In this document: piece after piece, positions 3,362 through 63,725 of the stretch | Layout of the letters: every line of letters starts with the position of its first letter | Position numbering within the stretch: position 1 is the first letter of the stretch | Origin: an uncultured bacterium | GTDB taxonomy: Bacteria; Acidobacteriota; Thermoanaerobaculia; Multivoradales; JAHZIX01 | Assembly (NCBI GenBank): GCA_965368975.1 | Contig: CBDUPA010000021.1 | Coordinates: forward strand, 32,001-96,000 | Direction: 5' to 3' | DNA: 64,000 nucleotides | Notes under the pieces: generated by a model | What the model saw: the letters and a program-made list of their open reading frames with translations, nothing else | Told to the model about the DNA's origin: nothing | Database searches by the model: none | Made by a program: the position numbers and the translations under genes

Positions 3362-3769
3362 ATGGACATGAAAGATCGACCCTATGATCTGACCCCACCC
3401 AAGGCCAACCTGGTGAGCGACGCGCGCTCTGGTTCTTCCTCCGGCGTTCGTCCAGCTGCTCCGACCTGGAAGGAAGACACGAGCTGGCAGGAAAACACCG
3501 CCTGGAAGGTCGGGCAGGCCAAGCAGCACTTGCCGGAACTGCTGCGCCGTGTCGAGGAGGAACCCCAAGTGATCTGTAAACGAACCACTCCTGTTGCCGC
3601 CGTCGTGCGCTATGACGACTTCCTGGAGTTCCAAACCTGGAAGCAGAAGCACCAGAAGCGCCCCCTGGCCGCGATCATTGAGGGCCTGACCGCCGCTTGC
3701 GCCGAAGCGGACTTCACGCTGGAAATCCCCGAGCGCCGCAACCGACTGACACCCTTCGACGAGCTATGA
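3362..3769 (+). CDS. Phd/YefM-family antitoxin
   Basis: WKVGQAKQHLPELLRRVEEEPQVICKRTTPVAAVV is a Phd-like N-terminal motif. Its stop overlaps the PIN gene start (ATGA). Confidence 0.8.
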   Translation: MDMKDRPYDLTPPKANLVSDARSGSSSGVRPAAPTWKEDTSWQENTAWKVGQAKQHLPELLRRVEEEPQVICKRTTPVAAVVRYDDFLEFQTWKQKHQKRPLAAIIEGLTAACAEADFTLEIPERRNRLTPFDEL

Positions 3770-4170
3770 GCTTCCTTTGTGACACCAACGTGGTCAGTGA
3801 GCTGGCCAAGCCACGACCGCATGCCGGCGTGGTGCGCTGGATGCAGGACTTGCCCGTCCTTTTCCTGAGCGCCATCAGCGTCGAAGAAATGAGCTACGGC
3901 CTGCAGCGACTGCCCGCAGGTAACTCGAGCCAGCGCATCCGCGTCTGGCTCGAACAGCTCCTCGACGCCGCCGAGATCCTCCCGATCACCGCCGACATCG
4001 CCCGCCGTGCCGGTCACCTACGCGGCCGCTTCGCCGCCCAAGGCCAGACCCGCAGTCAAGCCGACCTGCTGATCGCCGCCACCGCCCAACTCGGCTCGAT
4101 GACCGTCGTAACCCGCAACACTCGGGACTTCGAAGGCTGTCAGGTGCCGGTGTTCGATCCCTTCGACTGA
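3766..4170 (+). CDS. vapC: VapC-family PIN-domain toxin
   Basis: MSFLCDTNVVSEL...ADLLIAATA...VVTRNTRDF carries the PIN signature. ATG at 3766 is coupled to the antitoxin stop. Confidence 0.9.
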   Translation: MSFLCDTNVVSELAKPRPHAGVVRWMQDLPVLFLSAISVEEMSYGLQRLPAGNSSQRIRVWLEQLLDAAEILPITADIARRAGHLRGRFAAQGQTRSQADLLIAATAQLGSMTVVTRNTRDFEGCQVPVFDPFD

Positions 4171-7241: not shown

Positions 7242-8282
7242 TTAGCCCTGAGGAACCGGCGTGCCGGATTCCGAGGCCAGATGGTCCAAGGGTGGCAGGC
7301 CAGACCAGGTCTTGACGACGCGGCCGTCCTCGACCAGGAAAGATCTCGGCAGGCGCCGGTACAGCGGTGTCAACAACGCGGACGGCGCTTCGCGAATTTC
7401 GAACGCGGGTCCCCAGCTCCAGAAGAAGGTGCGCTTCTGTTCGGGCGTCGCGGCCGAGACCACCCAAGGGTGTGGCGGCGCTGGGTCCTGCACTTCTTGC
7501 AGCAAGGCGTAGTCGTTGAGCGCCTCGACGCCGGCCTCGAAGGCCGGATCCTCGAGCTCGGCCAGGATCACCACGTGTCGGCCGGACGCCAGTTCCGGGA
7601 CGACCAGGTCGAAGCAGATCTCTTCACCTTCGCTGCCGGCACAGATGGAGGCGGTCTCGACCCCGGGCTTGAGACGGGTGGCGAGATCGTCGAGTGGCAG
7701 GTCGGGAGCTTTCCAGGCGAGCAGCAGCACCGCGACGGTCAGCACGGCGACCGCAACGGTCCGCGGCGATTGCCAGCGCTGCGAGCCCCAGCGCCAGGCG
7801 AGACAGGCGAGTAGGAAGGGCGGCAGCAAGAGCAGCAAGTCTTGCCAGAAAGCCTCGGCCGGCGTGCGCTGCACCAGAGCACCGAAGCAGCCGCACTCGG
7901 CGTCATCTTCGAGCAGCCCTTGGGTCCAGCGCCAGTAGTTGCGACCGTTCAGATAGAGAAAGAAGGCCACCAGCAGTCCCGACGGCCACAGCACCCAGGG
8001 CCGGCGCAAGCCGAGCACCAGGGCGGCCCCCAGGGCGACTTCGAGCGCAAGCGCGATCATCGCCACGGTCGGCGCCGAAAGCAGGAAGTCCAGACCCTCG
8101 CGCGCGATCTGCTCGCTGAAGGCTACCGGATGGATCGCCTTGGCCCAGGCCGCGACGAGCAGTACCAGGCCGAGGATCAGCCCTCCTAGGTAGCCCAGCC
8201 ATCCCAACCAACGCGGCGTCTCGCGCGGTGGCGGCGTGTCTGGAACTTGGGTGGAGTCGGGAGTCGTGGCAGCGTCCTTCAT
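7242..8282 (-). CDS. MauE/DoxX-family redox-associated membrane protein
   Basis: Multiple TM helices, AAWAKAIHP, conserved ECGCFG motif and a soluble C-terminal domain. Confidence 0.8.
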   Translation of the reverse strand: MKDAATTPDSTQVPDTPPPRETPRWLGWLGYLGGLILGLVLLVAAWAKAIHPVAFSEQIAREGLDFLLSAPTVAMIALALEVALGAALVLGLRRPWVLWPSGLLVAFFLYLNGRNYWRWTQGLLEDDAECGCFGALVQRTPAEAFWQDLLLLLPPFLLACLAWRWGSQRWQSPRTVAVAVLTVAVLLLAWKAPDLPLDDLATRLKPGVETASICAGSEGEEICFDLVVPELASGRHVVILAELEDPAFEAGVEALNDYALLQEVQDPAPPHPWVVSAATPEQKRTFFWSWGPAFEIREAPSALLTPLYRRLPRSFLVEDGRVVKTWSGLPPLDHLASESGTPVPQG

Positions 8283-11747: not shown

Positions 11748-13079
11748 ATGTCCAAAGGCCGCCTGCTCGTCGTCGAGGACCGCGACTCGCTGCGCAAGAT
11801 GCTGTGCCATGCCCTGCAAGCTGACGGTTTCGACGCCGAAGCCGCGGCCGATGGTACGCAAGGCATGCGCCTGGTACGTGAGCGCGCCTATGACCTGGTG
11901 TTGACCGACCTGCAGCTACCCGGCGCTTCAGGCCTGGAGGTGCTGGCCGCCAGCCGGGAGGCCGATCGCATGCGGCCGGTGCTGGTACTCACCGGCTACG
12001 GCACCGTGGCACGCGCCGTCGAGGCGATGAAGCTGGGCGCTTTCGACTTCCTGGAAAAGCCGGTGGAGATCGACGATCTGCTACGCCTGATCCAGACGGC
12101 GATTGGCAGCGCCCGTGCCGGCAACGGCAGCGACGCCGTCTTCCAGCCGCCCGGCGACGCACCCGTCATTGTCGGCCGCCACCCCAGCCTGCGCGCCGCG
12201 CTGCGCCTGCTGCAACGCGTCGCCGTCACCGACAGCACCGTGCTGTTGACCGGCGAGAGCGGCACCGGCAAGGAGCTCTTCGCGCGCGCGCTGCACGCCC
12301 TGTCCAAGCGCCAGGCAGGTCCCTTCGTGGCGGTCAACTGCGCCGCCATCCCCGAATCCCTGATCGAGAATGAGCTGTTCGGCCACGAGCGCGGCGCCTT
12401 CACCGGTGCCGACCGGCGCCAGACCGGCCGCTTCGAAATGGCGGGCGGTGGCACCCTGCTACTCGACGAGGTCGGCGAGCTGCCGCTGAGCGTCCAGAGC
12501 AAGGTGCTCCGCGTGCTCGAAGACCGCCGCTACGAGCGGGTCGGCGGTAGCCAGACACTCGACGCCAACGCCCGCGTGGTCGCGGCGACCAACCGGCCGC
12601 TGCAACAGATGGTCGACAACGGCACCTTCCGCGCTGACCTCTACTTCCGTCTCGACGTCTTCCCCATCGAACTGCCCTCTCTGCGCGACCGCGCCTCGGA
12701 TGTACCGTTGCTGGCGCACCACCTGCTGCACCGCCTGGCCGCGCGTCACAATCTCGACGCCCCGCAACTGACGCCGGACACCGAGGAGTGGCTGCGCGAA
12801 CAACCGTGGCCAGGCAACGTGCGCGAGCTGTCCAACCTGCTGGAGCGCGCCGTCATCGTCGCCGATCGTGGCCAGTTGCGGCCCGCCGACCTGCACGCTC
12901 TGCAGCGGCGGGAATCCTCACCCGACCTCAACAGCGATGAGCTGACCGAACTGCGTCGCGCGCTGATCAAGACCGACGGCGACAAGAAGCAGGCGGCGAA
13001 GATGCTCGGCATCAGCTATAGCACGCTCCAACGTCGCATCCGCCAGCACGACCTCGAAGGCTTTCCGCGCTACCGATGA
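11748..13079 (+). CDS. Sigma54-dependent NtrC-family response regulator
   Basis: Receiver domain, GESGTGKE, GAFTGA, WPGNVREL and Fis-type HTH. Confidence 0.95.
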   Translation: MSKGRLLVVEDRDSLRKMLCHALQADGFDAEAAADGTQGMRLVRERAYDLVLTDLQLPGASGLEVLAASREADRMRPVLVLTGYGTVARAVEAMKLGAFDFLEKPVEIDDLLRLIQTAIGSARAGNGSDAVFQPPGDAPVIVGRHPSLRAALRLLQRVAVTDSTVLLTGESGTGKELFARALHALSKRQAGPFVAVNCAAIPESLIENELFGHERGAFTGADRRQTGRFEMAGGGTLLLDEVGELPLSVQSKVLRVLEDRRYERVGGSQTLDANARVVAATNRPLQQMVDNGTFRADLYFRLDVFPIELPSLRDRASDVPLLAHHLLHRLAARHNLDAPQLTPDTEEWLREQPWPGNVRELSNLLERAVIVADRGQLRPADLHALQRRESSPDLNSDELTELRRALIKTDGDKKQAAKMLGISYSTLQRRIRQHDLEGFPRYR

Positions 13080-29436: not shown

Positions 29437-29837
<401 letters not shown>

Positions 29838-30687: not shown

Positions 30688-31608
30688 TTACTTGGCCGCC
30701 TTCCAGACGTCGACGCACTCCTTGTAGTTGTCGGCGATGGCGCTGATCGCCTGCGCGTCACTGATCTCGCCAGCCAGGTACTGCGTGAGTGGTTCGCGGA
30801 AGATGGTGCGACCGACTGCGAAGCCGATGTAACCATCGACCGGGGCGGCGACGGCGAGCCACTTGTGGACGCTGGCCTTGTCCGAGCCACGACCGAGCAG
30901 GATGTTGCCGACCTTGGCACGCTCGGCACCGCGACGCGTGGCAGCAGCGACCTCGACGGCTTGCTCGCGGGTTTCGAGACCCTCGATCTTCCAGATGTCG
31001 GGCTCAACGCCAAAATCCTGGATCATGTGGATGGCGGTGACCATGTGCTTGGGGCGCAGCTCCTTGTCGTAGGCGTCGCCCATGGCCTTCTCTTCGTCGG
31101 TGAGCGCCGGTACCAGCAACTCGAACATGAAGTAATGGTCGTTGCCGTCGTGGATGTAATCCGACAACGCCTTGAGCCGTGCCAACTGCTCGCGATTGCC
31201 ACCCTCGTCGTCGTTCGGATGCAGGCGCACCAGGCACTTGACGAACCGTGGCTTGAGGAAGCGCAGGTGGTCTTGCCAGCGGCTGCCGTACTCGAAGTCG
31301 TAGAGAGGCTGACCGCTCTTCTCGGTGCACACCGCCACCGGAATTCCTTGACGCTGGGCGTCCAGGATCACCGGACCGCCGAACTCGGCGTCGACCAGCA
31401 GGCCGAGCTGATCGCGCGGTACGCCCTTGTCGATGGCCTCGAGCAGGCCGCGATAGACCAACATCTTGGCCTGGGTGACGGGCGTGCGCTCGTCCTTGCC
31501 AGCTGAGACGGCTGGCGGCCCCGACAAACCGAAGAAGCCTTTGGTGAAGCTGCCCCGGTGGTCGAAGGGTTGGACGAAAAGTGGCTTGTCGTATCCGATA
31601 TCCTTCAT
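30688..31608 (-). CDS. DUF2090 (IolC C-terminal aldolase-like) domain protein
   Basis: PFDHRGSF, EKSGQ..YDFEYG, FMFELLVP, GVEPDIWKIEG, LGRG and GFAVGRTIF. Confidence 0.85.
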   Translation of the reverse strand: MKDIGYDKPLFVQPFDHRGSFTKGFFGLSGPPAVSAGKDERTPVTQAKMLVYRGLLEAIDKGVPRDQLGLLVDAEFGGPVILDAQRQGIPVAVCTEKSGQPLYDFEYGSRWQDHLRFLKPRFVKCLVRLHPNDDEGGNREQLARLKALSDYIHDGNDHYFMFELLVPALTDEEKAMGDAYDKELRPKHMVTAIHMIQDFGVEPDIWKIEGLETREQAVEVAAATRRGAERAKVGNILLGRGSDKASVHKWLAVAAPVDGYIGFAVGRTIFREPLTQYLAGEISDAQAISAIADNYKECVDVWKAAK

Positions 31609-31693
31609 CTGTCTCCTCCGAGAGAATGGAAGTTGCTTGTGCCGGCGCAAGGCCTGGCAGTCTAGCAGATCGCCGGCGGGCCGCGACGCCGGC

Positions 31694-35407: not shown

Positions 35408-36754
35408 ATGGCCACTGAAGTCGTCATGCCCCAGATGGGCGAGAGCATCGCCGAAGGCACCATCACCCGCTGGCTGATCCAGCCCGGCGAGAAGGTGGAG
35501 CGAGACCAGCCGCTATTCGAGATGTCGACCGACAAGGTCGACGCCGAAATTCCCAGCCCCGCGGACGGCGTCTTGCTGGAAATCGTCCACGGCGATGGCG
35601 AAACGGTCGGAGTCAACGAGGTGGTGGCCTACATCGGCGCCGAGGGCGAAAAGCCTGCGGCAGGTGCCGGCAAGCCCGCGGCGGATGCGGCTCGCTCCGA
35701 GGAGAAGGCCGCCGCTGCCGCGACCCAGCCGGAAACGGCTGGCGGCAACGGTAGCGTGACGCTCGAGGAGCGCCTACGCACCCACTCCAGCCCGCTGGTG
35801 CGCAACATCGCTGCCAAGGAAGGCATCGACCTGACACAGGTCCCTGGCACCGGCATCCACGGCCGCGTCACCAAGAGCGACATCCAGACCTACCTGGAGA
35901 CACCCGCCAGTGAGAGAGCCACCAGTGGGAGAGCCGCAGCCGCCAGCGCCAAGGCAACCCCGGCAGCAGCTTCCGCTCCAGCCCCAGCCGCGCGTCCGGT
36001 CGGCGACTTTCACGTACCTGCGTACACTGCGGGCGAGAACGTCGAGATCGTGCCGATGTCCAAGATCAGGCAGATCACGGCCGCTCACATGGCCTACTCC
36101 AAGGCCACCTCGGCGCACGTCTCGACCGTCTTCCACATCGACATGACGCGCGTCGACAAGGTCCGCAAGCGGGCCAAGAACCGCTTCCTGCAAGCCAACG
36201 GTACCAAGCTGACCTTCATGCCCTTCATCTTCAAGGCGGTCTCCGGCGCGCTGCGTGCCTACCCGCAGATCAACGCCGCCCTCGACGGTACCAACATCGT
36301 CTACAAGAAGGACATCAACCTCGGCATGGCCGTGGCACTCGACCACGGCTTGATCGTGCCGGTGCTGCGCAACGCCGACCAGCTCAGCCTGGCTGGCCTG
36401 GCCAAGGGCGCCAATGACCTGGCAGACCGCGCGCGCTCGAAGAAGCTCAGCCCCGACGAGATCAGGGGCGGCACCTTCACGATCACCAACCCGGGCGTTT
36501 TCGGCAGCCTCTTCGGCACGCCGGTGATCAACCAACCACAGGTGGCGATCTTGGGGATCGGCACGATCGAGAAGCGGCCGGTAGTGGTGACCGACGCCGA
36601 AGGCAACGACAACCTGGCGATCCGCACCATGTCCTACTTCGCCATCACCTTCGATCACCGCCTGATCGACGGTGCCGATGCGGACCACTTCATGATCCAC
36701 ATCAAGAACACGCTGCAAGACGAGACCTGGGACGAGCTGAAGCCCTATCTCTGA
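35408..36754 (+). CDS. sucB: 2-oxoacid dehydrogenase E2 (probably dihydrolipoamide succinyltransferase)
   Basis: Lipoyl domain MPQMGESIAEGT...STDKVDAEIPSP, E3-binding domain and DHRLIDG. Confidence 0.85.
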   Translation: MATEVVMPQMGESIAEGTITRWLIQPGEKVERDQPLFEMSTDKVDAEIPSPADGVLLEIVHGDGETVGVNEVVAYIGAEGEKPAAGAGKPAADAARSEEKAAAAATQPETAGGNGSVTLEERLRTHSSPLVRNIAAKEGIDLTQVPGTGIHGRVTKSDIQTYLETPASERATSGRAAAASAKATPAAASAPAPAARPVGDFHVPAYTAGENVEIVPMSKIRQITAAHMAYSKATSAHVSTVFHIDMTRVDKVRKRAKNRFLQANGTKLTFMPFIFKAVSGALRAYPQINAALDGTNIVYKKDINLGMAVALDHGLIVPVLRNADQLSLAGLAKGANDLADRARSKKLSPDEIRGGTFTITNPGVFGSLFGTPVINQPQVAILGIGTIEKRPVVVTDAEGNDNLAIRTMSYFAITFDHRLIDGADADHFMIHIKNTLQDETWDELKPYL

Positions 36755-36965
36755 GACTCAGCTCCCGTCACCCTCCTTGCCGAAGAGCACCGCCACTCTC
36801 GTGAGAGGGTGGCGAGATGCAGAAATTTCGTCTCGTTTGTCCCGCTTTCGGGGTCGAGCTGCACATAGAAAGTTTCTATCTGTGATTCGATCGACAGCGA
36901 GTCAAAAAATCCAACAAAGTTTGCCCCTCGTGTCACGCTTCGGCGCCGCCGCGCACTCCTACAAC

Positions 36966-37024
36966 GAAAGAAGTGGACCCTTCTGAGTATGCGGCGATCC
37001 AAAAAGGATGCGCCGCCTTTTTTT
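36966..37024 (+). ncRNA. Putative small RNA copy 1 (5' hairpin plus intrinsic terminator)
   Basis: AGAAG-UGGACC-CUUCU hairpin, then GCGGCG-AUCC-AAAAA-GGAU-G-CGCCGC stem followed by a U7 tract. The 5' end is inferred. Confidence 0.6.
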
Positions 37025-37172
37025 GTCTCCAAGACCCCCTCCGGCCCCCCCGCCCTCCGCGACCGTCTTTCTCCCATTTCCGAAAATCTCCCGCCTGACG
37101 GGCACTTCAAAGAAATTTCAGGAAATCTCTCTAGCGGTGTCACGTTTTGGCACCGGGGCGCACTCCTACAAC

Positions 37173-37232
37173 GAAAGAAGTGGACCCTTCTGAGTATGCG
37201 GCGATCCAAAAAGGACACGCCGCCTTTTTTTT
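37173..37232 (+). ncRNA. Putative small RNA copy 2
   Basis: Same conserved core, terminator stem and U-tract as copy 1. Confidence 0.6.
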
Positions 37233-37336
37233 GCCCAGAAAGCGCCCTGCCTTGCCCCCTTATCGCCACCACGGAATCAATCAAAAAATTCTCACCCGGC
37301 TTGTCACGCTTCGGCGGCGAGATGCACTCCTATAAC

Positions 37337-37395
37337 GAAAGAAGTGGACCCTTCTGAGTATGCGGCGATCCAAAAGGACACGCCGCCTTTTTTTT
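37337..37395 (+). ncRNA. Putative small RNA copy 3
   Basis: Same conserved core, terminator stem and U-tract as copy 1. Confidence 0.6.
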
Positions 37396-37448
37396 GCCCG
37401 AAGGCCCCGGGCAGGGGCCACGGCACGACGGCGCTAGAATGGGCGGCC

Positions 37449-38207
37449 ATGTCGGCACCCACCTCTCTCGATCCCGATCCCCGCCCTCTCCGGCTACACC
37501 GCCGTCTCCGGATACACAGGACGGACGGCGGCTTCCTCGGCCGCTTGGCCTACCAAGACGCCAACGCACTACAGACGCATCTGCGCGACGCCGTGCTGGC
37601 GGGCACGACACCCGAGCACCTGCTACTGCTCGAGCACCCGCACGTCTTCACCCTCGGCCGCAACGCCTCGCTCGACGACCTGCGCAGCAGCGAGGCCGAT
37701 CTGCAGCGCGACGGGATCGCCGTGGTCGAGACGGACCGTGGCGGTCAGATGACCTACCACGGCCCCGGTCAGCTGGTCGGCTATCCGATCCTCGATCTCA
37801 AGCCCGACCGGCAAGACATCCGGCGCTACATCCGCGATCTGCAGGAAGTGCTGATCCGGACGCTGGCGGACTTCGGCATCGAGGCCGAACGACGCGATGG
37901 CAAAGGCTTCGTCGGCGTGTGGGTGGGAGACGGCAAGATCGCCTCCCTGGGGGTGCACCTGAAACGCTGGGTGACCACCCACGGATTCGCCCTCAACGTC
38001 AGCACGGATCTCGACTACTTCCACCACATCGTGGCTTGCGGCCTTCCCGGGGTACCGCTGGTGTCGATCGAGCGCTTGACCGGAACACGACCGTCGCTGG
38101 AGCAGGTCGCCGAGCGGCTGAGTGGCCACTTCGCCAACATCTTCGAGCGACAGCTGGAGCCGGCGAACCTCAGCGCCCTAGGAGCGCCAGCGCCGATGCA
38201 TCCATAG
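37449..38207 (+). CDS. lipB: Lipoyl(octanoyl) transferase
   Basis: LLEHPHVFTLGR, TDRGGQMTYHGPGQLVGYP, KIASLG and HGFALNV. Confidence 0.95.
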   Translation: MSAPTSLDPDPRPLRLHRRLRIHRTDGGFLGRLAYQDANALQTHLRDAVLAGTTPEHLLLLEHPHVFTLGRNASLDDLRSSEADLQRDGIAVVETDRGGQMTYHGPGQLVGYPILDLKPDRQDIRRYIRDLQEVLIRTLADFGIEAERRDGKGFVGVWVGDGKIASLGVHLKRWVTTHGFALNVSTDLDYFHHIVACGLPGVPLVSIERLTGTRPSLEQVAERLSGHFANIFERQLEPANLSALGAPAPMHP

Positions 38208-39062
38208 CCACTGCTCCGGCTGGCGACGGATCTCGGCTTCGATCAGGCCCAGCAGTTGCTGGGTGGCGGCGAACTCTCCCTCGCGGCTGGCTTCGTAGTC
38301 GCGCAGGTCGATCGCCGGATCGATGCGCAGAAAGTAGCCGTCACGCCCCTCCGCCACGGCAAACACCGGCACCACCGGCGTGCCGGTACGAATCGCCAGG
38401 AAGGCGACCAGAGGCGTCGTCGGACTGGGATGACCAAAGAAAGGCACGTCGATGCCCCCTTCACGCACCCGCTGGTCGATCAGGATGCCGACACGCCCGC
38501 CCTTGCGCACCACCGTGCGCATGCGCTGGCCGGCGCCGCTCTTGAGGATGGTCTCGATACCGCAACGCTGACGAACGCGGTTGATGTCGCGGTCGACCAG
38601 CGGATTGTTGGGTGGTCGCACCACCAGGTGCAGTGACCCCATGTGATGACTGAGCGCATACGCCATCTGCTCGAAGGCTCCGAAGTGGCCACTGAGCACG
38701 AAGACACCGCGCCCCTGGGCATCGGCGGCGTCCAGGTTCTCCCAGCCCTCGACGCGAAAGCGCTGCTCTACCGTCTCCGGACGCAGATGCTCGGCGGTGG
38801 CGATCTCGCAGAAGGTGATGCCGAAGTTCTGGAAGCAGCCGCGAGCAATCGCGCGGTGCCGTGTTTCGCCCAACGCCGGCAACGCCAGACGCAGGTTGCG
38901 CAGCGCCAGGCGCCGCTTGGGAGCCAGCAGGTAGTAGGTCAAGCCCCCGAGACGGCGGCCGAAGCCACGGATGGAGGCCGGTGACATGGCCAGCAAGGAG
39001 CGCTGTACACCCCGGTAGAGGAGGTATTCGAAGCGGTAGTAGGCGTCGGAGCGGCGCGCCAT
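38178..39062 (-). CDS. Lipid A late acyltransferase (LpxL/HtrB family)
   Basis: SGHFGAFE, LIDQ, VPFFG and PEQWLWMHRRW. Confidence 0.9.
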   Translation of the reverse strand: MARRSDAYYRFEYLLYRGVQRSLLAMSPASIRGFGRRLGGLTYYLLAPKRRLALRNLRLALPALGETRHRAIARGCFQNFGITFCEIATAEHLRPETVEQRFRVEGWENLDAADAQGRGVFVLSGHFGAFEQMAYALSHHMGSLHLVVRPPNNPLVDRDINRVRQRCGIETILKSGAGQRMRTVVRKGGRVGILIDQRVREGGIDVPFFGHPSPTTPLVAFLAIRTGTPVVPVFAVAEGRDGYFLRIDPAIDLRDYEASREGEFAATQQLLGLIEAEIRRQPEQWLWMHRRWRS

Positions 39063-40000
39063 CAGGAAACTCCGGGATCGTCGAGCAACGGCAGCTCAGG
39101 GTAATAATAACCTTCGTGGTAGTCAGTGCGCACGGTATCCAGCGCCAGCACCAGGTCGGGTTCGGATGCGGGCTGAAAGCGGCCCGCCGCCAGGGCTTCC
39201 ATGTCAGCCTTGCCAGCGTCGTGAGCAAAACTTCGGCCGTCGAAGATCGCCAGCCAGCCAGACGGCACCGGCAGGACTTGCAGCGGCGACTCCTTCTCCT
39301 TCGTCTCGTGCCACCAGTCCAGGTAGGTGTCGAAAAGCCGCCGCACCTTCCACTCTGAAGCGGCTTCAGCGTCCAGACGGCCAGCGTCGATCAGACACTC
39401 GACCAGTCGGGGCAGCGGTAGCGGCAGGATACGAAACTGCCGCGGCTGCACCGCCGCGTTGGCATAGAACTGGTAGACCGGCTCGTCGTACTCGGTCAGA
39501 CTCGAGAGTTCGGCGTCAAAATGCAGGTTCTCGGCCTGGATGTCCGCCTCCGGCGCGGTGGTCGAGGCGCGCGCGTCGTCCAGCTTGACGGCGCGCACGA
39601 AGAGATGCGTGCCGGCAAGTCCGGTCTCGACCCGCCGTAGCAACTCGACCAGATACGGGCACGTCTCGCAAACGTGCTGCCGCAGCGCTGCCGGCAACGG
39701 TCGCGGCAGGTCAGTCAGGCGTCCACCGCGCAGGGCCGTCAAATGGCCTTCCGCACGCAACCGCGCCATCTCCGCGATGGCACCGCTGCTCAGCTCCGGC
39801 GTCAGTGGCGACGGCAACGGCAGGATGCGCACCTCCTGGTCGAGGTCATCGAACTCGATGGTCTCGGCGAACGGCTGCACGCGCTCGACCACACCCGTCT
39901 CTTCGAGAAGAGTCGACCCGAAAGCTACCCCAAGAGCAGCCACAACCGTGCCCGCCTGAGGCACGGTGTAAACGGCGCGGGGACGGTCCGATGCAGGCAT
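39062..40000 (-). CDS. Hypothetical protein, possible Kdo-hydroxylase-like Fe(II)/2OG dioxygenase
   Basis: NLHFDAE...QFYANAAVQPRQF...WLAIFDGRSFAHDAG gives an HxD...H facial-triad pattern. Its stop overlaps the acyltransferase start. Confidence 0.5.
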   Translation of the reverse strand: MPASDRPRAVYTVPQAGTVVAALGVAFGSTLLEETGVVERVQPFAETIEFDDLDQEVRILPLPSPLTPELSSGAIAEMARLRAEGHLTALRGGRLTDLPRPLPAALRQHVCETCPYLVELLRRVETGLAGTHLFVRAVKLDDARASTTAPEADIQAENLHFDAELSSLTEYDEPVYQFYANAAVQPRQFRILPLPLPRLVECLIDAGRLDAEAASEWKVRRLFDTYLDWWHETKEKESPLQVLPVPSGWLAIFDGRSFAHDAGKADMEALAAGRFQPASEPDLVLALDTVRTDYHEGYYYPELPLLDDPGVS

Positions 40001-52675: not shown

Positions 52676-54007
52676 TCACTTCTGCTGCACACGGCTGAGC
52701 GCGCCAGAGAGCTCTTCGATCAGGGTTGCGGACACCTGCTCCATGTGGGCCGCCTTCTGGAACACGATGAGCGCGGCCATGGCCTCGCGGTGCAATTCCA
52801 GTGACTGGAAGATGGGCAGGGTCTCTTCGGCCAGCTGACGCATGGCGGTGACGCGGCCCTGGCGAGCGTAGATGCTGGCCAGGTCGAGCGACACCCAGGC
52901 GGCGTCGTAGCCGATTTCGTGGTCGATGAACGCACGCCGGACATCCACCAGGGCGGATTCGGCATCGTCGATCTGACCAGCGGCGATGGAAATGCGACCT
53001 TCCAGCCAGCGCAGGCGGACCAGGTCCAGCTCGTTGGCGAACTGACGGTGCAGGTCGCGGGTCTCTTCGAGCAGGTTCAGCGCTTCCTGCTGCTGCCCCT
53101 TCTCGCTCAGGTAGAAGCACAGGTTGTGGGTCGCCACCAGCATCAGGCGCGGTTCCTGCTCGGGCTCGATCCAGGCCAGGCCCCTGCGCAGCAGACGAAC
53201 CGCCTCCTCGGTGTGGTCCTGCTTGCCGGCCAGCAGGCCCTGTCCGATCAGCACGCGACCTTCCAGGTGGCGATCCTCCAGCTTGCGGTACAGAAGGGCA
53301 GCACGCTGCAGGCAATGGGTCGCGTCCTTGAGCCGGTGGTTGTCGCGGAACAGCGACGCCTTCAGCTCGAAGATACGGCCCTTCTCCAGTGGATCACCGC
53401 TCCCCTTCTGGATCAGCGATTCGGCCAGGTCGAACGCCTTCTCGGCACCGTGCAGGTCCGAGCGGATACGGCGGGCATTGCCCAGCATTGCCCAGGCGCG
53501 CGCCTTGATGTCGTACGCCAGGGGTGCCGAGCAGGTCTCGACATCCAGCTCATAGGCCATGCTCACCGCCACCTCGGCCAGCTGTAGCGCTCGGTGCGGA
53601 TCCTGCACGCACGCGTGCCAGGAGCGCTCCAGAATCAGCTCGCACAGCGACCAGCTGCGGAAGCGGGAGTCGTTGCACACCATCAGGCGCTGCTGCTCCA
53701 GCGGCCGCCGGGTCAGCTCTTCGAACAGGTGCTCGGCGGTTTCCGTGTCGGCGCTCAGCTGGCTTTCCCAATCGAAAGCACGGCTGGTCATGCGCATCCA
53801 GGACGCCGTGTACAGGTGCTCGAAATCTTCGTCCAGACCTGCCATGTCAGTCAGATCAGACGTCATTTCGGTGCCTTCGGTCGCTTCGTACCAGGCAGTG
53901 TCGTCGTCACGCCTCAGCGCGGCACGCACCATCGAGCAAGCCTCTTCCGGCGTTAGATCGAAATCCAGTTTCCAGAGTTGCGACCGATCCAAACTGCTCG
54001 AAGTCAT
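52676..54007 (-). CDS. Tetratricopeptide-repeat-like protein
   Basis: GGGAGG RBS and helical repeats (ARAWAMLGNARRI, RLRWLEGRI, YDAAWVSLDLA). Paralogous to 62481..63725. Confidence 0.8.
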   Translation of the reverse strand: MTSSSLDRSQLWKLDFDLTPEEACSMVRAALRRDDDTAWYEATEGTEMTSDLTDMAGLDEDFEHLYTASWMRMTSRAFDWESQLSADTETAEHLFEELTRRPLEQQRLMVCNDSRFRSWSLCELILERSWHACVQDPHRALQLAEVAVSMAYELDVETCSAPLAYDIKARAWAMLGNARRIRSDLHGAEKAFDLAESLIQKGSGDPLEKGRIFELKASLFRDNHRLKDATHCLQRAALLYRKLEDRHLEGRVLIGQGLLAGKQDHTEEAVRLLRRGLAWIEPEQEPRLMLVATHNLCFYLSEKGQQQEALNLLEETRDLHRQFANELDLVRLRWLEGRISIAAGQIDDAESALVDVRRAFIDHEIGYDAAWVSLDLASIYARQGRVTAMRQLAEETLPIFQSLELHREAMAALIVFQKAAHMEQVSATLIEELSGALSRVQQK

Positions 54008-54333
54008 CACCAGACCTCCCCCCGTGTTTATCGGACATCTCATACGGGGCTTCGATCGAGATGAACCGGGCTGGTTTTCCGAAATGGAAAACCTTCAACC
54101 TAATATCACATGCTTATCAAAGAAGTCTCACGACTCTGGGCCGCTGACTGTCCTCTTTCTTGGGGCTCTTGTCGCCCTTCGCCATGATCAGCTCGCTCTA
54201 GGCTCTGAGATTCAGGTGAGCTGAGATCAGCCGCACTAGATCGAGCTGTGGCAATTATCCATTTGGGTCAAGTGTCGGGCCGGCGTCGAGACAACCTTCG
54301 ATCACCGCGTGACGCTGAGCACAAACACTGACT

Positions 54334-54387: not shown

Positions 54388-54598
54388 GGCTTTTGGACTT
54401 TCATCGCTTTTGCATCCGATCCGAGACCATCCATGAGGTTTGCGTCACATCCAAGAGCTGAAGGGAAGTCTCCGCCCGGCCTTGGATCTTCACGTCGGCG
54501 GTGAGGTCGTCCTGCACCTGCCTTCAGTAGATCTAGTGCATACGACCCTGCAGAGTGGGACAAGATTTTCCGATTTGGTTCGCTTTTCAAGATACGGA

Positions 54599-61051: not shown

Positions 61052-61128
61052 TGAAGGGTCCGTCTCGAGTCGTAGGGCGGGAAGACTTGTGCGGCGGGAA
61101 GAATAGCAGGGCAAGGCGCACACGGAAA

Positions 61129-61158
61129 CAGGCCGCCACACCGAAGCGCGGCGGCCTG
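61129..61158 (-). terminator. Hairpin downstream of peptide gene A
   Basis: CAGGCCGCC/GGCGGCCTG stem followed by TTT on the minus strand. Confidence 0.65.
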
Positions 61159-61191: not shown

Positions 61192-61395
61192 TCACCAGGT
61201 CGGCGTGAAGGTGGTCGGGCAGCCGACCGACTCGTTGTGCACGCAGTCCGGGGAAATGGTGGTCACAACGCACTTGTAGCCTTCGGTGAAGTCGATTGGA
61301 ATGGCACCACCGACCTGGTGCATTGTATCCTCCTCAAGAGCCAGCAGGGTGTCCTTGCGAAGCCGCAACCTTCGAATACTGATCCGCTTCTTCAT
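61192..61395 (-). CDS. RiPP precursor-like peptide A (double-glycine, lanthipeptide-type leader)
   Basis: GGAG RBS, leader MKKRISIRRLRLRKDTLLAL...QVGG, and a 37-aa Cys/Thr/Ser-rich core. Confidence 0.75.
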   Translation of the reverse strand: MKKRISIRRLRLRKDTLLALEEDTMHQVGGAIPIDFTEGYKCVVTTISPDCVHNESVGCPTTFTPTW

Positions 61396-61580: not shown

Positions 61581-61626
61581 GCAAGCTACAGGCCGCCACA
61601 CCGAAGCGCGGCGGCCTGTAGCTTGC
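61581..61626 (-). terminator. 17-bp perfect-stem hairpin downstream of peptide gene B
   Basis: GCAAGCTACAGGCCGCC/GGCGGCCTGTAGCTTGC. Confidence 0.7.
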
Positions 61627-61657: not shown

Positions 61658-61882
61658 TCACCAGGTCGGCGTAAAGGTGGTCGGGCAGCCGACCGACTCG
61701 TTGTGCACGCAGTCCGGGGAAATGGTGGTCGCGATGCACACGGCGTCCTCGGTCCACTGGTCACAGATCGGATGGCCGCTGGTGCCGCCGTTGACACCCG
61801 CCATGCCGTTCTCGGTGATGGCCAGCAGGGTGTCCTTGCGCAGCTGTAGCTTCCGGGCGATGTTCCGCTTCTTCATGGTCAT
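61658..61882 (-). CDS. RiPP precursor-like peptide B (double-glycine, lanthipeptide-type leader)
   Basis: GGAG RBS, leader MKKRNIARKLQLRKDTLLAI...GVNGG, and a 41-aa core with 4 Cys. The start is either 61882 or 61876. Confidence 0.75.
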   Translation of the reverse strand: MTMKKRNIARKLQLRKDTLLAITENGMAGVNGGTSGHPICDQWTEDAVCIATTISPDCVHNESVGCPTTFTPTW

Positions 61883-62310
61883 GTTCTCCAAGTAGCGATG
61901 GGAGTCGAGCTCCCGAATAGGGGGTTACCCTTGGGTGGGTAGTACGACTGACTGGTACGGTTGGCGCAGTGGAAGGTTCTTTGGGATCAGATTTCTTTAC
62001 ATCGGGTAGAGCTGCGCGACAGGTCGTACCGATTCTCCTCGTCCTCGCACATCCTAGGTGGAGCGGGGACCGCATCGCGCATGATGCCGAATGAGGGCGC
62101 CCCGCGGAAAGGAACCGTCGCATGAACAGGTACCTGTCGAACCGAGTGGCCCGTTGGGGGGCCGGTCCGTGGCTGGATCCAGATGGAGGCCGCCCAGGCA
62201 GTGGAGATCTCGGGCCGGGCCTTGGTTGGCTCCAATGGAGAATCACTGCGAAACGTCTAGACGTAGACTGAATGCGTGAACTCCGCCATCAATTAAGCGA
62301 GCCTCACCTC

Positions 62311-62350: not shown

Positions 62351-62480
62351 GATCATCTCTCGCAGTAGTCGGTAGCGAGGCACAAGCCTCGCTACTGAAT
62401 TTTTTAGCGTGGATGTCACGATTTCTCGTCTGCTCGCACTTTAGAGGCAACCTAGACGAAAATCCAATCTTGGAGATACC

Positions 62481-63725
62481 ATGTACCATCTTCCTCGCGA
62501 GTTGTTCGAGGCTCATTTGGCAGGCGATATTTCCCCCAGAGAGCTTTCAAGATTCCTGGCTGAACACCTGATAACCCTCTGCCCCTTGTGCGAAGCGGAG
62601 TTACGAGCGGTCCAGCGGAGTCTGGACAATCAAGATCATGGGCAACGAGGGGAGCCGAAGCCAAGTCCCGAGGATTGGCACCAAGCGCGCAAGTGGATGG
62701 AGGAGTTACAGCGGGATCCGATCTCGATCTGGGCGGGCAAGGTTGCCAGAGCGAGGAAGCGTTTTCGCGGCCCTGCATTCGCCGAACTCATGCTAGAGCA
62801 GGCCAGGTTATATCCTGAGAATGCCCTGGAAACTACAACCTGCGCACAGATGGCCCTCCCCCGGCAAGGATTTGCCAGTACACGCATTGATGCTATGGCC
62901 TGCGCACTGCAGATGAACGCCTATCGCGTGCAGGGCAGCTACGACCGGGCACAACAGTACCTGGATCTACTGCCAGCCCTCCTGAATGGAGTCACGAACC
63001 CGGCCTGCCAGGCCGAGGCCGCAAGCCTGATTGGCTCTCTCCTCATCGACCTACGTCATTTCAGCAAGGCGAAGCAGCATCTGAGCTACGCTGCAATTCT
63101 CTCCAAGCACATCCTGCGAGACAGTGAACTCAGCGCCAGGACGGCAATCAAGATATCTGGCATCCACTACTACCAGCGCCAGTGGGACCAGGCTCTGAAC
63201 GCTCTTCTGCCGGCTTTCCAAGATGTGCAGGAAGAAGAAACACCCCGCATTTACTTCATCTTGCGCTACAACCTGGCGATGCTCTTCTGCGCAATGAACC
63301 ATCCAGACGCTGCGCTGGAGCTTCTCCCCGAGGTACAAGCAGGCTTGCGGCAGCATGGCACCACCATCGACCAGAGGTCACTGCAGTGGCTGGAAGGTCG
63401 GATTCACGGGGGTCTGAGCGATCATCATCGCGCTTACCGACTGCTGACAGATCTCCGGGATCAATACCTGCAAGAAGGGCAACATTTCTGTGCGGCGATC
63501 GTCGCCTGCGACATTTGCTGCCTGCATCTGGATCGAAATGAACTGGACGCCGCCGTGGAGATCTTGCAACCAGCCCTGTCGACCATGTGCCGCCACTCGC
63601 TGCACGAGGAAAGCGAACAGGTTGTGCGCGGCTTGCAGAACGCCCTGCTTCGAGGTGTATTGACGCTCACGACACTGAAGGCTGCCCTGCCCCACCTGGA
63701 ACAGGCAGCTCGCGTCGTTCGCTAG
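62481..63725 (+). CDS. TPR-like protein with N-terminal zinc-finger-like (HxxxxCxxC) motif
   Basis: GGAG RBS, HLITLCPLC and helical repeats (QWLEGRI, FCAAIVACD). GC is visibly lower than in flanking genes. Confidence 0.75.
   Translation: MYHLPRELFEAHLAGDISPRELSRFLAEHLITLCPLCEAELRAVQRSLDNQDHGQRGEPKPSPEDWHQARKWMEELQRDPISIWAGKVARARKRFRGPAFAELMLEQARLYPENALETTTCAQMALPRQGFASTRIDAMACALQMNAYRVQGSYDRAQQYLDLLPALLNGVTNPACQAEAASLIGSLLIDLRHFSKAKQHLSYAAILSKHILRDSELSARTAIKISGIHYYQRQWDQALNALLPAFQDVQEEETPRIYFILRYNLAMLFCAMNHPDAALELLPEVQAGLRQHGTTIDQRSLQWLEGRIHGGLSDHHRAYRLLTDLRDQYLQEGQHFCAAIVACDICCLHLDRNELDAAVEILQPALSTMCRHSLHEESEQVVRGLQNALLRGVLTLTTLKAALPHLEQAARVVR

Follow-up and report, generated by a model that had tools for sequence, protein, structure and literature searches.

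Three near-identical cassettes upstream of lipB in an Acidobacteriota genome are candidate sibling small RNAs with putative promoters of an alternative sigma factor

What occupies the long, AT-rich gap in front of lipB in an uncultured member of the Acidobacteriota (Thermoanaerobaculia, Multivoradales, JAHZIX01)? The window, by which we mean the whole stretch of 64,000 nucleotides (nt) that was analyzed (assembly GCA_965368975.1, contig CBDUPA010000021.1, positions 32,001 to 96,000 of the forward strand), contains a gap of 694 bp (36755-37448) between the stop codon of a 2-oxoacid dehydrogenase E2 gene and lipB, with a GC content of 0.57 as against about 0.65 for the window. An initial annotation, made from the sequence alone, had described an AT-richer gap of about 690 bp between sucB and lipB and within it three small-RNA cassettes, each with a promoter of the extracytoplasmic function (ECF) type, a conserved RNA and a terminator. 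The gap and the identity of the two flanking genes (TIGR02927 and TIGR00214) are as described there. The reading of the cassettes that we favor, and consider moderately probable, is that they encode sibling trans-acting small RNAs (sRNAs) belonging to an alternative-sigma regulon.

A repeat search returned a single family, a 95-nt sequence present in direct orientation at 36930-37024, 37137-37231, and 37301-37395, with 207 and 164 nt from start to start; in ungapped comparison with copy 1, copy 2 is 93% and copy 3 is 82% identical. Each unit consists, in order, of TGTCACG, a 15-nt spacer, GCACTCCTAYAAC, the invariant 35-nt 5′ part of the presumed RNA, and a terminator with U7-8. In the alignment the spacer is followed by GCACTCCTA(C/T)AAC, then by GAAAGAAGTGGACCCTTCTGAGTATGCGGCGATCC, A4-5, GGA(TG/CA)CGCCGCC, and T7-8. 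The promoter-like boxes, all on the forward strand, have the form TGTCACG-N15-GCAC and lie at 36931-36956 in unit 1 (TGTCACG at 36931-36937, GCAC at 36953-36956), at 37138-37163 in unit 2, and at 37302-37327 in unit 3. Upstream of unit 1 is a degenerate fourth cassette, U0 (36838-36872, forward strand), in which TGTCCCG-N16-GCAC (36838-36864) is followed by ATAGAAAG, after which similarity ends; it retains the promoter boxes and the first few RNA bases and has no terminator. The repeat search and the alignment thus place the units, boxes, RNA core, and terminators where the initial annotation had put them, and the degenerate promoter-like copy that it reported at about 36838-36871 is real. Its account of how each cassette is built, with boxes resembling a promoter ahead of a short non-coding body that ends in an intrinsic terminator, also stands.

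Conservation among the three units is selective. Pairwise identity is 100% in TGTCACG and in the first 35 nt of the RNA, and 92-100% over the segment from GCAC to AAC. It is 53-67% in the 15-nt spacer, 40-45% in the 40 nt upstream of the units, and 35-47% in the 40 nt past the T-run, in keeping with the earlier statement that the sequence between units is unrelated. The spacer, described there as variable and of fixed length, is indeed fixed at 15 nt but is not freely variable, with 8 of its 15 positions invariant (TT.GGC..CG). The predicted mature RNAs are near-identical, 56 of 61 alignment columns being invariant. This contrast between boxes and RNA body on one side and spacer and flanks on the other argues against neutral decay of a duplication, which would not leave exactly the promoter boxes and the RNA body intact.

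The repeat is confined, within the window, to these three places. A 31-nt core has three exact occurrences and no other with up to three mismatches, and none of 100 shuffled windows contained any match. A covariance model of the unit, run over the window with filters off, found only the three copies (92-96 bits), the next hit scoring 13 bits (E 0.21), and no further diverged copy was detected in this way. The element is therefore not of high copy number in the window, which the initial annotation had named as a possible sign of a mobile repeat. Tandem Repeats Finder (TRF) did not report the units as a head-to-tail array, since the inter-unit sequences are unrelated and unequal in length.

The proposed sRNA 1 (36966-37024, forward strand, about 59 nt) would comprise a hairpin at 36969-36984, the linker GAGUAU, a terminator hairpin at 36991-37016, and a T7 run at 37018-37024. 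sRNA 2 (37173-37232, about 60 nt) would end in T8 at 37225-37232, and sRNA 3 (37337-37395, about 59 nt), in which the terminator loop is one A shorter, in T8 at 37388-37395; the 5′ end of each is a predicted one. Every RNA, taken as 60-61 nt from GAAAG to the T-run, is predicted to form a 5-bp hairpin (AGAAG/CUUCU) with the loop UGGACC, followed by the 6-nt linker, and its 3′ part folds as an interrupted GC-rich terminator hairpin. Folding energies are −17.9 to −20.6 kcal/mol, with z-scores of −2.5 to −3.2, and the fold agrees with the 5-bp hairpin with a GGA-containing loop and the terminator proposed earlier.

The terminators set the units apart from the rest of the window. Only six runs of six or more T are present on both strands, and the runs of seven or more are only the T7-8 runs of the three units, each behind a hairpin of −14 to −17 kcal/mol. 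A general terminator scan missed all three because their stems are interrupted, and it was the T-run scan that found them; apart from the units, this window of about 65% GC has no canonical U-rich terminators. At least seven U residues are typical of the terminators of Hfq-binding sRNAs, as given in PMC5558911, and the units have T7, T8, and T8 after GC-rich hairpins.

As the initial annotation had supposed, the units match no Rfam family: Rfam 15 gave no match in the whole window at gathering thresholds, and at E ≤10 the region 36700-37500 gave nothing beyond three reverse-strand matches to unrelated models, at 12-14 bits. ARAGORN found no tRNA or tmRNA. A coding reading was rejected, as the only ATG frame crosses the terminator into unrelated sequence and the 1-nt indel in the A-run shifts the frame. 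An integron attC site was rejected for lack of an RYYYAAC/GTTRRRY pair, and a CRISPR array because the repeat is too long and holds a terminator. We judge it likely that each unit is transcribed on its own as a small RNA.

Do the boxes in front of each RNA represent a promoter? The window contains six sites with the motif TGTCMC-N16/17-GCAC, all of them intergenic, where 0.69 would be expected (standard deviation 0.91, largest count 4, and no shuffle of 100 with 6). Four are those of U0 and units 1 to 3 in the gap, and two lie elsewhere. The fifth site (62414-62439, forward strand) is TGTCACG-N15-GCAC, with an upstream AT content of 0.59, and stands 42 nt before the ATG at 62481. The sixth, related site (54536-54562, reverse strand; upstream AT 0.63) has TGTCCCA with the spacing to GCAC longer by one, and sits in a 555-bp gap upstream of the 455-amino-acid gene at 52676-54043 (reverse strand). 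With up to one mismatch there are nine hits, six of them inside the 9.7% of the window scored as non-coding.

A second feature accompanies the boxes. A/T-rich tracts precede unit 1 (36899-36925, AT 0.63), unit 2 (37106-37132, AT 0.70), and unit 3 (37270-37296, AT 0.63), all on the forward strand; the first, which spans roughly −67 to −41 relative to the proposed start, is UP-element-like. Between −32 and −6 from TGTC, the AT content is 0.59-0.70 at five of the six sites and 0.48 at U0, compared with a mean of 0.35 for 27-nt stretches of the window, only 1.8% of which reach 0.55. If TGTCAC is the −35 box, the position of the tract would be that of an UP element.

The motif stands upstream of both of the two members of a tetratricopeptide repeat (TPR) protein family in the window, and upstream of none of the other 50 listed genes except lipB, which sits behind unit 3 and its terminator. 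The excess of the motif, the intergenic position of all its sites, and its link to a single protein family support a real alternative-sigma promoter. The recurrence of motif and A/T tract before two paralogous protein genes strengthens the promoter reading of the initial annotation.

Promoters of another kind are found at five genes that have no Shine-Dalgarno sequence, at 7242-8282 (reverse), 11748-13079 (forward), 30688-31650 (reverse), 37449-38207 (forward), and 39062-40000 (reverse). Here (T/C)GCTAGNNT or GGGTAAGAT ends 6-9 nt before the start codon, which suggests extended −10 promoters of leaderless mRNAs in this organism. The housekeeping promoters of the window differ from the TGTCMC/GCAC type. 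A housekeeping sigma-70 promoter for the units was rejected: a consensus scan found none in the gap, the 23 nt from TGTCAC to TAYAAC are more than such a promoter allows, and TAYAAC does not have the T at its end. An RpoH-like promoter (consensus CTTG..CYTAT) is ruled out by spacing.

Of the two TPR-family genes, that at 62481-63725 (forward strand) encodes a protein of 414 amino acids and has a GGAGA ribosome-binding site, and that at 52676-54043 encodes its paralogue (26% identity over 254 amino acids, E 2e-17). A hidden Markov model (HMM) of the family, searched against the window translated in all six frames, hit exactly these two genes. A search of 1.84 billion representative sequences with the 62481 protein gave 1563 relatives at E ≤0.001, of which 306 were at E ≤1e-10; the ESM Atlas clusters that look like it consist mostly of TPR proteins from Acidobacteriota, about 440 amino acids long. 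N-terminal to the TPR solenoid, H3, H29, C34, and C37 (H-x25-H-x4-C-x2-C) are invariant in 49 family sequences. Pfam listed TPR_12 in 48 of 50 family members and zf-HC2 in none, and no Pfam model covers the H/H/C/C motif.

The full-length model of the 62481 protein (predicted local distance difference test score, pLDDT, 93.9) resembles TPR proteins such as LGN and Rap. For a model of its N-terminal 65 amino acids (pLDDT 88.9), the best two matches in the PDB are chains of RsiW, a zinc-binding anti-sigma factor (5wuq_D and 5wuq_C), both non-significant (E 0.26 and 0.9; template modeling score 0.41-0.47), and phmmer likewise listed RsiW, at E 0.87. The zinc-binding anti-sigma (ZAS) motif is H-x3-C-x2-C with an upstream His/Cys on a helical domain, compared with the spacing H-x4-C-x2-C found here. 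The 52676-54043 paralogue, which covers only positions 56-430 of the HMM, is without the N-terminal H/H/C/C part. Both proteins look cytoplasmic. An anti-sigma-like zinc domain in the 62481 protein, if the modeled likeness is real, would suit an ECF circuit.

In the model that we propose, the gap would contain three paralogous genes for a near-identical non-coding RNA of about 59 nt, each with its own ECF-like bipartite promoter recognized by an alternative factor of the sigma-70 family and composed of the A/T upstream tract, a −35 box TGTCAC(G), a gap of 16 nt, and a −10 box GCAC. Transcription would start near G36966, G37173, and G37337 if the distance from −10 to start equals that of published ECF41 promoters, and each RNA would end at the strong intrinsic terminator with its U7-8 tail. 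The same type of promoter would drive the two paralogous TPR-domain proteins, taken as regulatory, and the RNAs would be the non-coding arm of the regulon, their three copies giving dosage. They would act in trans, the invariant 25 nt at the 5′ end (loop UGGACC, CCCUUCU, linker GAGUAU) pairing with their targets, while the terminator hairpin and long U tail may form a chaperone-binding end of the Hfq type. We put the chance that independent transcription as small RNAs and an alternative-sigma promoter hold together at somewhat better than even, and for base pairing as the specific mode of action it falls rather short of even. Base pairing is nonetheless ranked first among modes because the invariant 5′ 25 nt, the A/U-containing linker, and the U7-8 terminator have the architecture of chaperone-dependent sRNAs, and because alternative-sigma regulons commonly include such RNAs and tandem sibling sRNAs are recurrent.

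Several results weigh against this reading, those on the promoter coming from comparison with the ECF41 group. The ECF41 signature, as given in PMC3426412, is TGTCACA-n16(±1)-CGTC, TGTCACA being specific to the group. The −35 box agrees at six of seven positions (TGTCACG) in units 1 to 3 and at the 62414 site, with TGTCCCG or TGTCCCA at the two weaker sites, and the ECF41 spacing fits the units. The −10 box does not agree: in place of CGTC or TGTT, the units have GCAC/CACT 15-17 nt after the 7-mer. The ECF41-type promoter of the initial annotation thus holds for its −35 box and fails at its −10 box, and since only the former fits, we call the promoter that of an alternative, ECF-like sigma factor and not a canonical ECF41 promoter. 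A −10 of related form is known from the ECF sigma factor HrpL, the hrp box of which is GGAACC-N15/16-CCACNNA with a CCAC −10 (PMC9276944).

PMC3426412 and PMC3616915 report genes for carboxymuconolactone decarboxylase/oxidoreductase/epimerase (COE) proteins adjoining the sigma gene as the sole targets of ECF41 factors. Neither Sigma70_r2/r4 nor carboxymuconolactone decarboxylase was found among the open reading frames (ORFs) scanned in the window (Pfam sets of 9, 38, 13, and 41 translations, some submitted twice, covering the listed genes and ORFs of at least 60 codons that do not overlap them), and Pfam listed neither Hfq nor CsrA there. The initial annotation's proposal of ECF control finds no sigma-factor gene among those ORFs. 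The 5′ end presents a further difficulty. In Sinorhizobium meliloti, an ECF41-type motif lies 9 nt upstream of a mapped start (PMC3616915), and the same distance here would give a start at 36965/36966, the 5′ end previously suggested. Between GCAC and that start, however, lies TCCTAYAAC, which is conserved in eight of nine bases and absent from the two protein-gene sites. The promoter model leaves this conservation unexplained, so the RNA may begin earlier or later than 36966.

Other adverse points concern the RNA itself. For a fold, z-scores of −2.5 to −3.2 are moderate values. Since every paired position carries the same base in all three copies, covariation lends the structure no support; the copies differ by UG/CA and one A in the top of the terminator, changes that slightly alter an internal loop and are not compensatory. 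Gene conversion is an alternative cause of the identity of the copies. When the 26-nt 5′ part was paired with 45 initiation regions of the window, the best duplex reached −19.6 kcal/mol, a value equaled or surpassed by 95% of 200 shuffled RNAs; pairing with the 5′ regions of both TPR genes was likewise no better than that of shuffles. Nor was there complementarity above shuffle controls to the neighboring initiation regions of the E3, E2, and lipB genes. The ribosome-binding sites of the window are GGAGG-like and not AGAAGGG, so masking of purine-rich sites by CCCUUCU, the targeting suggested in the initial annotation, gains no specific support.

Homologues of the supposed family did not emerge either. 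A scan of a collection of genomes from 185,579 species with the pattern RRRRGTGGACCCYYYYGAGTATG, which required the exact loop and linker, was probably too strict, and did not return the source genome itself, found a single locus. This is in a Syntrophobacteraceae metagenome-assembled genome (MAG), is coding-like, has neither promoter nor terminator, and is a chance match. blastn with unit 1 gave 18 plasmid records, none relevant (at most 28% query coverage, E 0.9-3), and no match among phages. The ‘family’ thus currently consists of three paralogues in one genome, and in the literature on sRNAs of Acidobacteria and on TGTCAC promoters in Acidobacteria we found no description of this element.

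Other explanations of the cassettes have to be set against the same evidence. The promoter could be sigma-54-dependent, with TT.GGC of the spacer as the −24 box and YGCA as the −12 box. The sigma-54 consensus is TGGCACG-N4-TTGCW, that is, GG-N10-GC, and Qrr, GlmY/Z, and CrcZ are sigma-54-dependent RNAs. Unit 2 does read TTGGCAC-N5-CGCAC, and GG and GC are kept in all units. The window also encodes an NtrC-type sigma-54-dependent response regulator (11748-13079, forward strand), from an apparently leaderless gene, and a small HTH_8 protein of the Fis type (29493-29837, forward strand), so that sigma-54 is presumably present in the organism. All three units, however, have GG-N9-GC in place of GG-N10-GC, the 62414 site has no GG at the matching position, and the invariant TGTCACG would be left unexplained; sigma-54 dependence is in our view quite improbable. 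If the RNAs are instead decoys that titrate a protein, in the manner of CsrB, RsmY, and RsmZ, the GGA of the loop and the AAGGA of the terminator would bind a CsrA-like dimer, with three copies raising capacity. The two GGA motifs lie about 31 nt apart, in the hexaloop and in AAAAGGA at the junction of terminator loop and stem, and the negative target searches within the window would be expected on this account. Known CsrA decoys carry many more than two GGA motifs, and the context for CsrA binding is a loop ANGGA. Here the loop is UGGACC and the second GGA lies at the edge of a stem, there is no Csr/Rsm match in Rfam, and no CsrA-family protein was listed among the scanned ORFs. The units share with these decoys a GGA in a hairpin loop and a short, terminator-ended form; titration, which the initial annotation had offered beside base pairing, is unlikely.

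The units might act in cis, as promoter-terminator modules that gate lipB by attenuation or read-through, or else a longer read-through transcript might be the product. All units face lipB, a distance of 54 nt separates the end of unit 3 from the lipB ATG, and U0, lacking its own terminator, would feed transcription from its promoter into unit 1; PrrH, which spans prrF1-prrF2, is a precedent for a read-through product (PMC4211561). Yet lipB has its own housekeeping-type −10, CGCTAGAAT (37435-37449, forward strand; TAGAAT at 37435-37440, 8 nt before the ATG at 37449), as have four other apparently leaderless genes. lipB is therefore probably transcribed independently, with no need of the cassettes. 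Folds of the 96-97-nt units show no anti-terminator pairing, and three identical attenuators in series, each with a promoter of its own, have no obvious logic, so that a role in cis is improbable. Nearly as doubtful is a non-functional or selfish element, such as a repetitive extragenic palindrome (REP), a miniature inverted-repeat transposable element (MITE), or a mobile remnant, kept uniform by gene conversion and with boxes that arose by chance or bind some other protein. Such an element would be in line with the failure to find homologues in the genome pattern scan or among plasmids and phages, and with a −10 box, GCAC, that matches no consensus described for promoters of the TGTCAC type. 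The window does not have the marks of a MITE or REP, however. Three copies in 64 kb occupy one gap in one orientation, the region 36700-37500 contains no inverted repeat of 12 nt or more, TRF gives no array for the units, the edges of conservation match the promoter boxes and the terminator, and the motif recurs upstream of two paralogous genes. Sibling sRNAs transcribed from alternative-sigma promoters remain the reading that we prefer.

How far does this reading fit systems already known? PrrF1/PrrF2 of Pseudomonas aeruginosa, OmrA/OmrB of Escherichia coli, AbcR1/AbcR2 of Agrobacterium and Sinorhizobium, and the tandem csRNAs are adjacent homologous short RNA genes in one intergenic region (PMC4211561). 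The units, homologous and side by side with promoter-like boxes and a terminator each, fit this anatomy in their sequence, and both they and the known siblings presumably originated by duplication. There is no sequence or Rfam relation to PrrF, OmrA/B, or AbcR. The units are three where those are two, would be shorter at about 59 nt, and are near-identical whereas OmrA/B and AbcR1/2 differ in parts. In Neisseria, the tandem sibling sRNAs NmsR/NgncR_162-163 control central metabolism (PMC5362039 and PMC9973317); the units adjoin 2-oxoacid dehydrogenase and lipoylation genes and have no sequence relation to the Neisseria RNAs. Sibling sRNAs with dedicated promoters are thus a well-established kind of system, in which the near-complete identity and the number of the units are unusual but not unprecedented in kind.

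Dependence of sRNAs on ECF sigma factors is exemplified by RybB and MicA of E. coli. Another case is FoxJ of Fusobacterium (PMC11005410). The units would resemble these in combining an alternative-sigma promoter with an intrinsic terminator and in forming the non-coding arm of a regulon with protein genes; they differ in promoter motif and have no known envelope-related target, and the genes that would be co-regulated with them encode cytoplasmic-looking TPR proteins. With ECF41 promoters the units share the −35 box at six of seven positions and a similar spacer length, not the −10 box, and at least three separate target loci here stand against the sole COE target there. With the hrp box they share the ECF-type bipartite form and an xCAC −10 at a similar distance from the −35, which is TGTCAC and not GGAACC; the hrp box belongs to other organisms and to a type III secretion regulon (PMC9276944). 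The promoter, judged by its boxes, is a hybrid of known ECF types.

Of the genes bordering the gap, the E2 gene (35408-36754) has the Pfam domains 2-oxoacid_dh, Biotin_lipoyl, and E3_binding and matches TIGR02927 (SucB_Actino in NCBIfam; 430 bits, cutoff 423). The closest non-self relative of its protein is 74% identical, and the named relatives are MAG proteins labeled Acidobacteriota, Thermoanaerobaculia, or Holophagae. lipB (37449-38207, forward strand), with an in-frame ATG at 37449, matches TIGR00214 with 164 bits (cutoff 84), and an 18-nt tandem repeat (37481-37517, forward strand; 2.1 copies, 89% matches) lies within its N-terminal coding part. About 30 nt past the E2 stop is a stable hairpin (36787-36820, forward strand) with no U tract (−23.8 kcal/mol and z −2.4 for 36780-36840), possibly the end of the E2 transcript; GGTGGCGAGATGCA within it is similar to the unit 3 spacer.

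Some features near the 62481 gene and elsewhere were also noted. The segment 62311-62405 (forward strand), just upstream of the 62414 site, contains a direct repeat of 20 nt in two copies (TAGTCCTGCARAGACAC..), the hexamer TAGGAT, which resembles a −10 box, a T6 run, and a hairpin of very high stability (−24.7 kcal/mol, z −5.2). It could represent an operator region, an attenuator, or a very short transcript. Two paralogous small ORFs on the reverse strand, at 61192-61395 (67 amino acids) and 61658-61891 (77 amino acids), share an identical C-terminal core and match NF038153, the NCBIfam model of class I lanthipeptide leaders, with 23.5 and 25.7 bits (cutoff 22). The same 31-nt hairpin follows each on its own strand (61128-61158 and 61588-61618), and in that part of the window which was inspected no lanthipeptide modification enzymes were found. 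A Phd/YefM antitoxin-like ORF (3362-3769, forward strand) followed by a PIN-domain ORF (3697-4170, forward strand) is a probable type II toxin-antitoxin pair.

What would the cassettes mean for this phylum? Regulatory RNAs of the Acidobacteriota are almost unknown, a review table giving four distinct annotated sRNAs for Acidobacteriota and 345 for Proteobacteria (PMC9029176). If expressed, the units would constitute a clean and easily modeled sRNA family, provide a candidate promoter signature for an uncharacterized alternative sigma factor, and make a first link between that sigma factor, a large phylum-specific TPR family, and a non-coding RNA. We suggest, tentatively, that the cassettes are the non-coding arm of an undescribed alternative-sigma regulon in an Acidobacteriota lineage, marked by an A/T tract, TGTCMC, N16/17, and GCAC, in which a triplicated, sequence-identical sRNA of about 59 nt is coupled to members of the TPR family. 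It is equally conjectural that the promoter of this regulon joins an ECF41-like −35 to an HrpL-like −10, and, with the same reserve, that the N-terminal H/H/C/C domain of the TPR protein may be an anti-sigma-like zinc switch, one TPR gene standing beside the pair of lanthipeptide precursors. Were this regulon real, the cassettes would be the first sigma-specific sRNA family defined in the Acidobacteriota.

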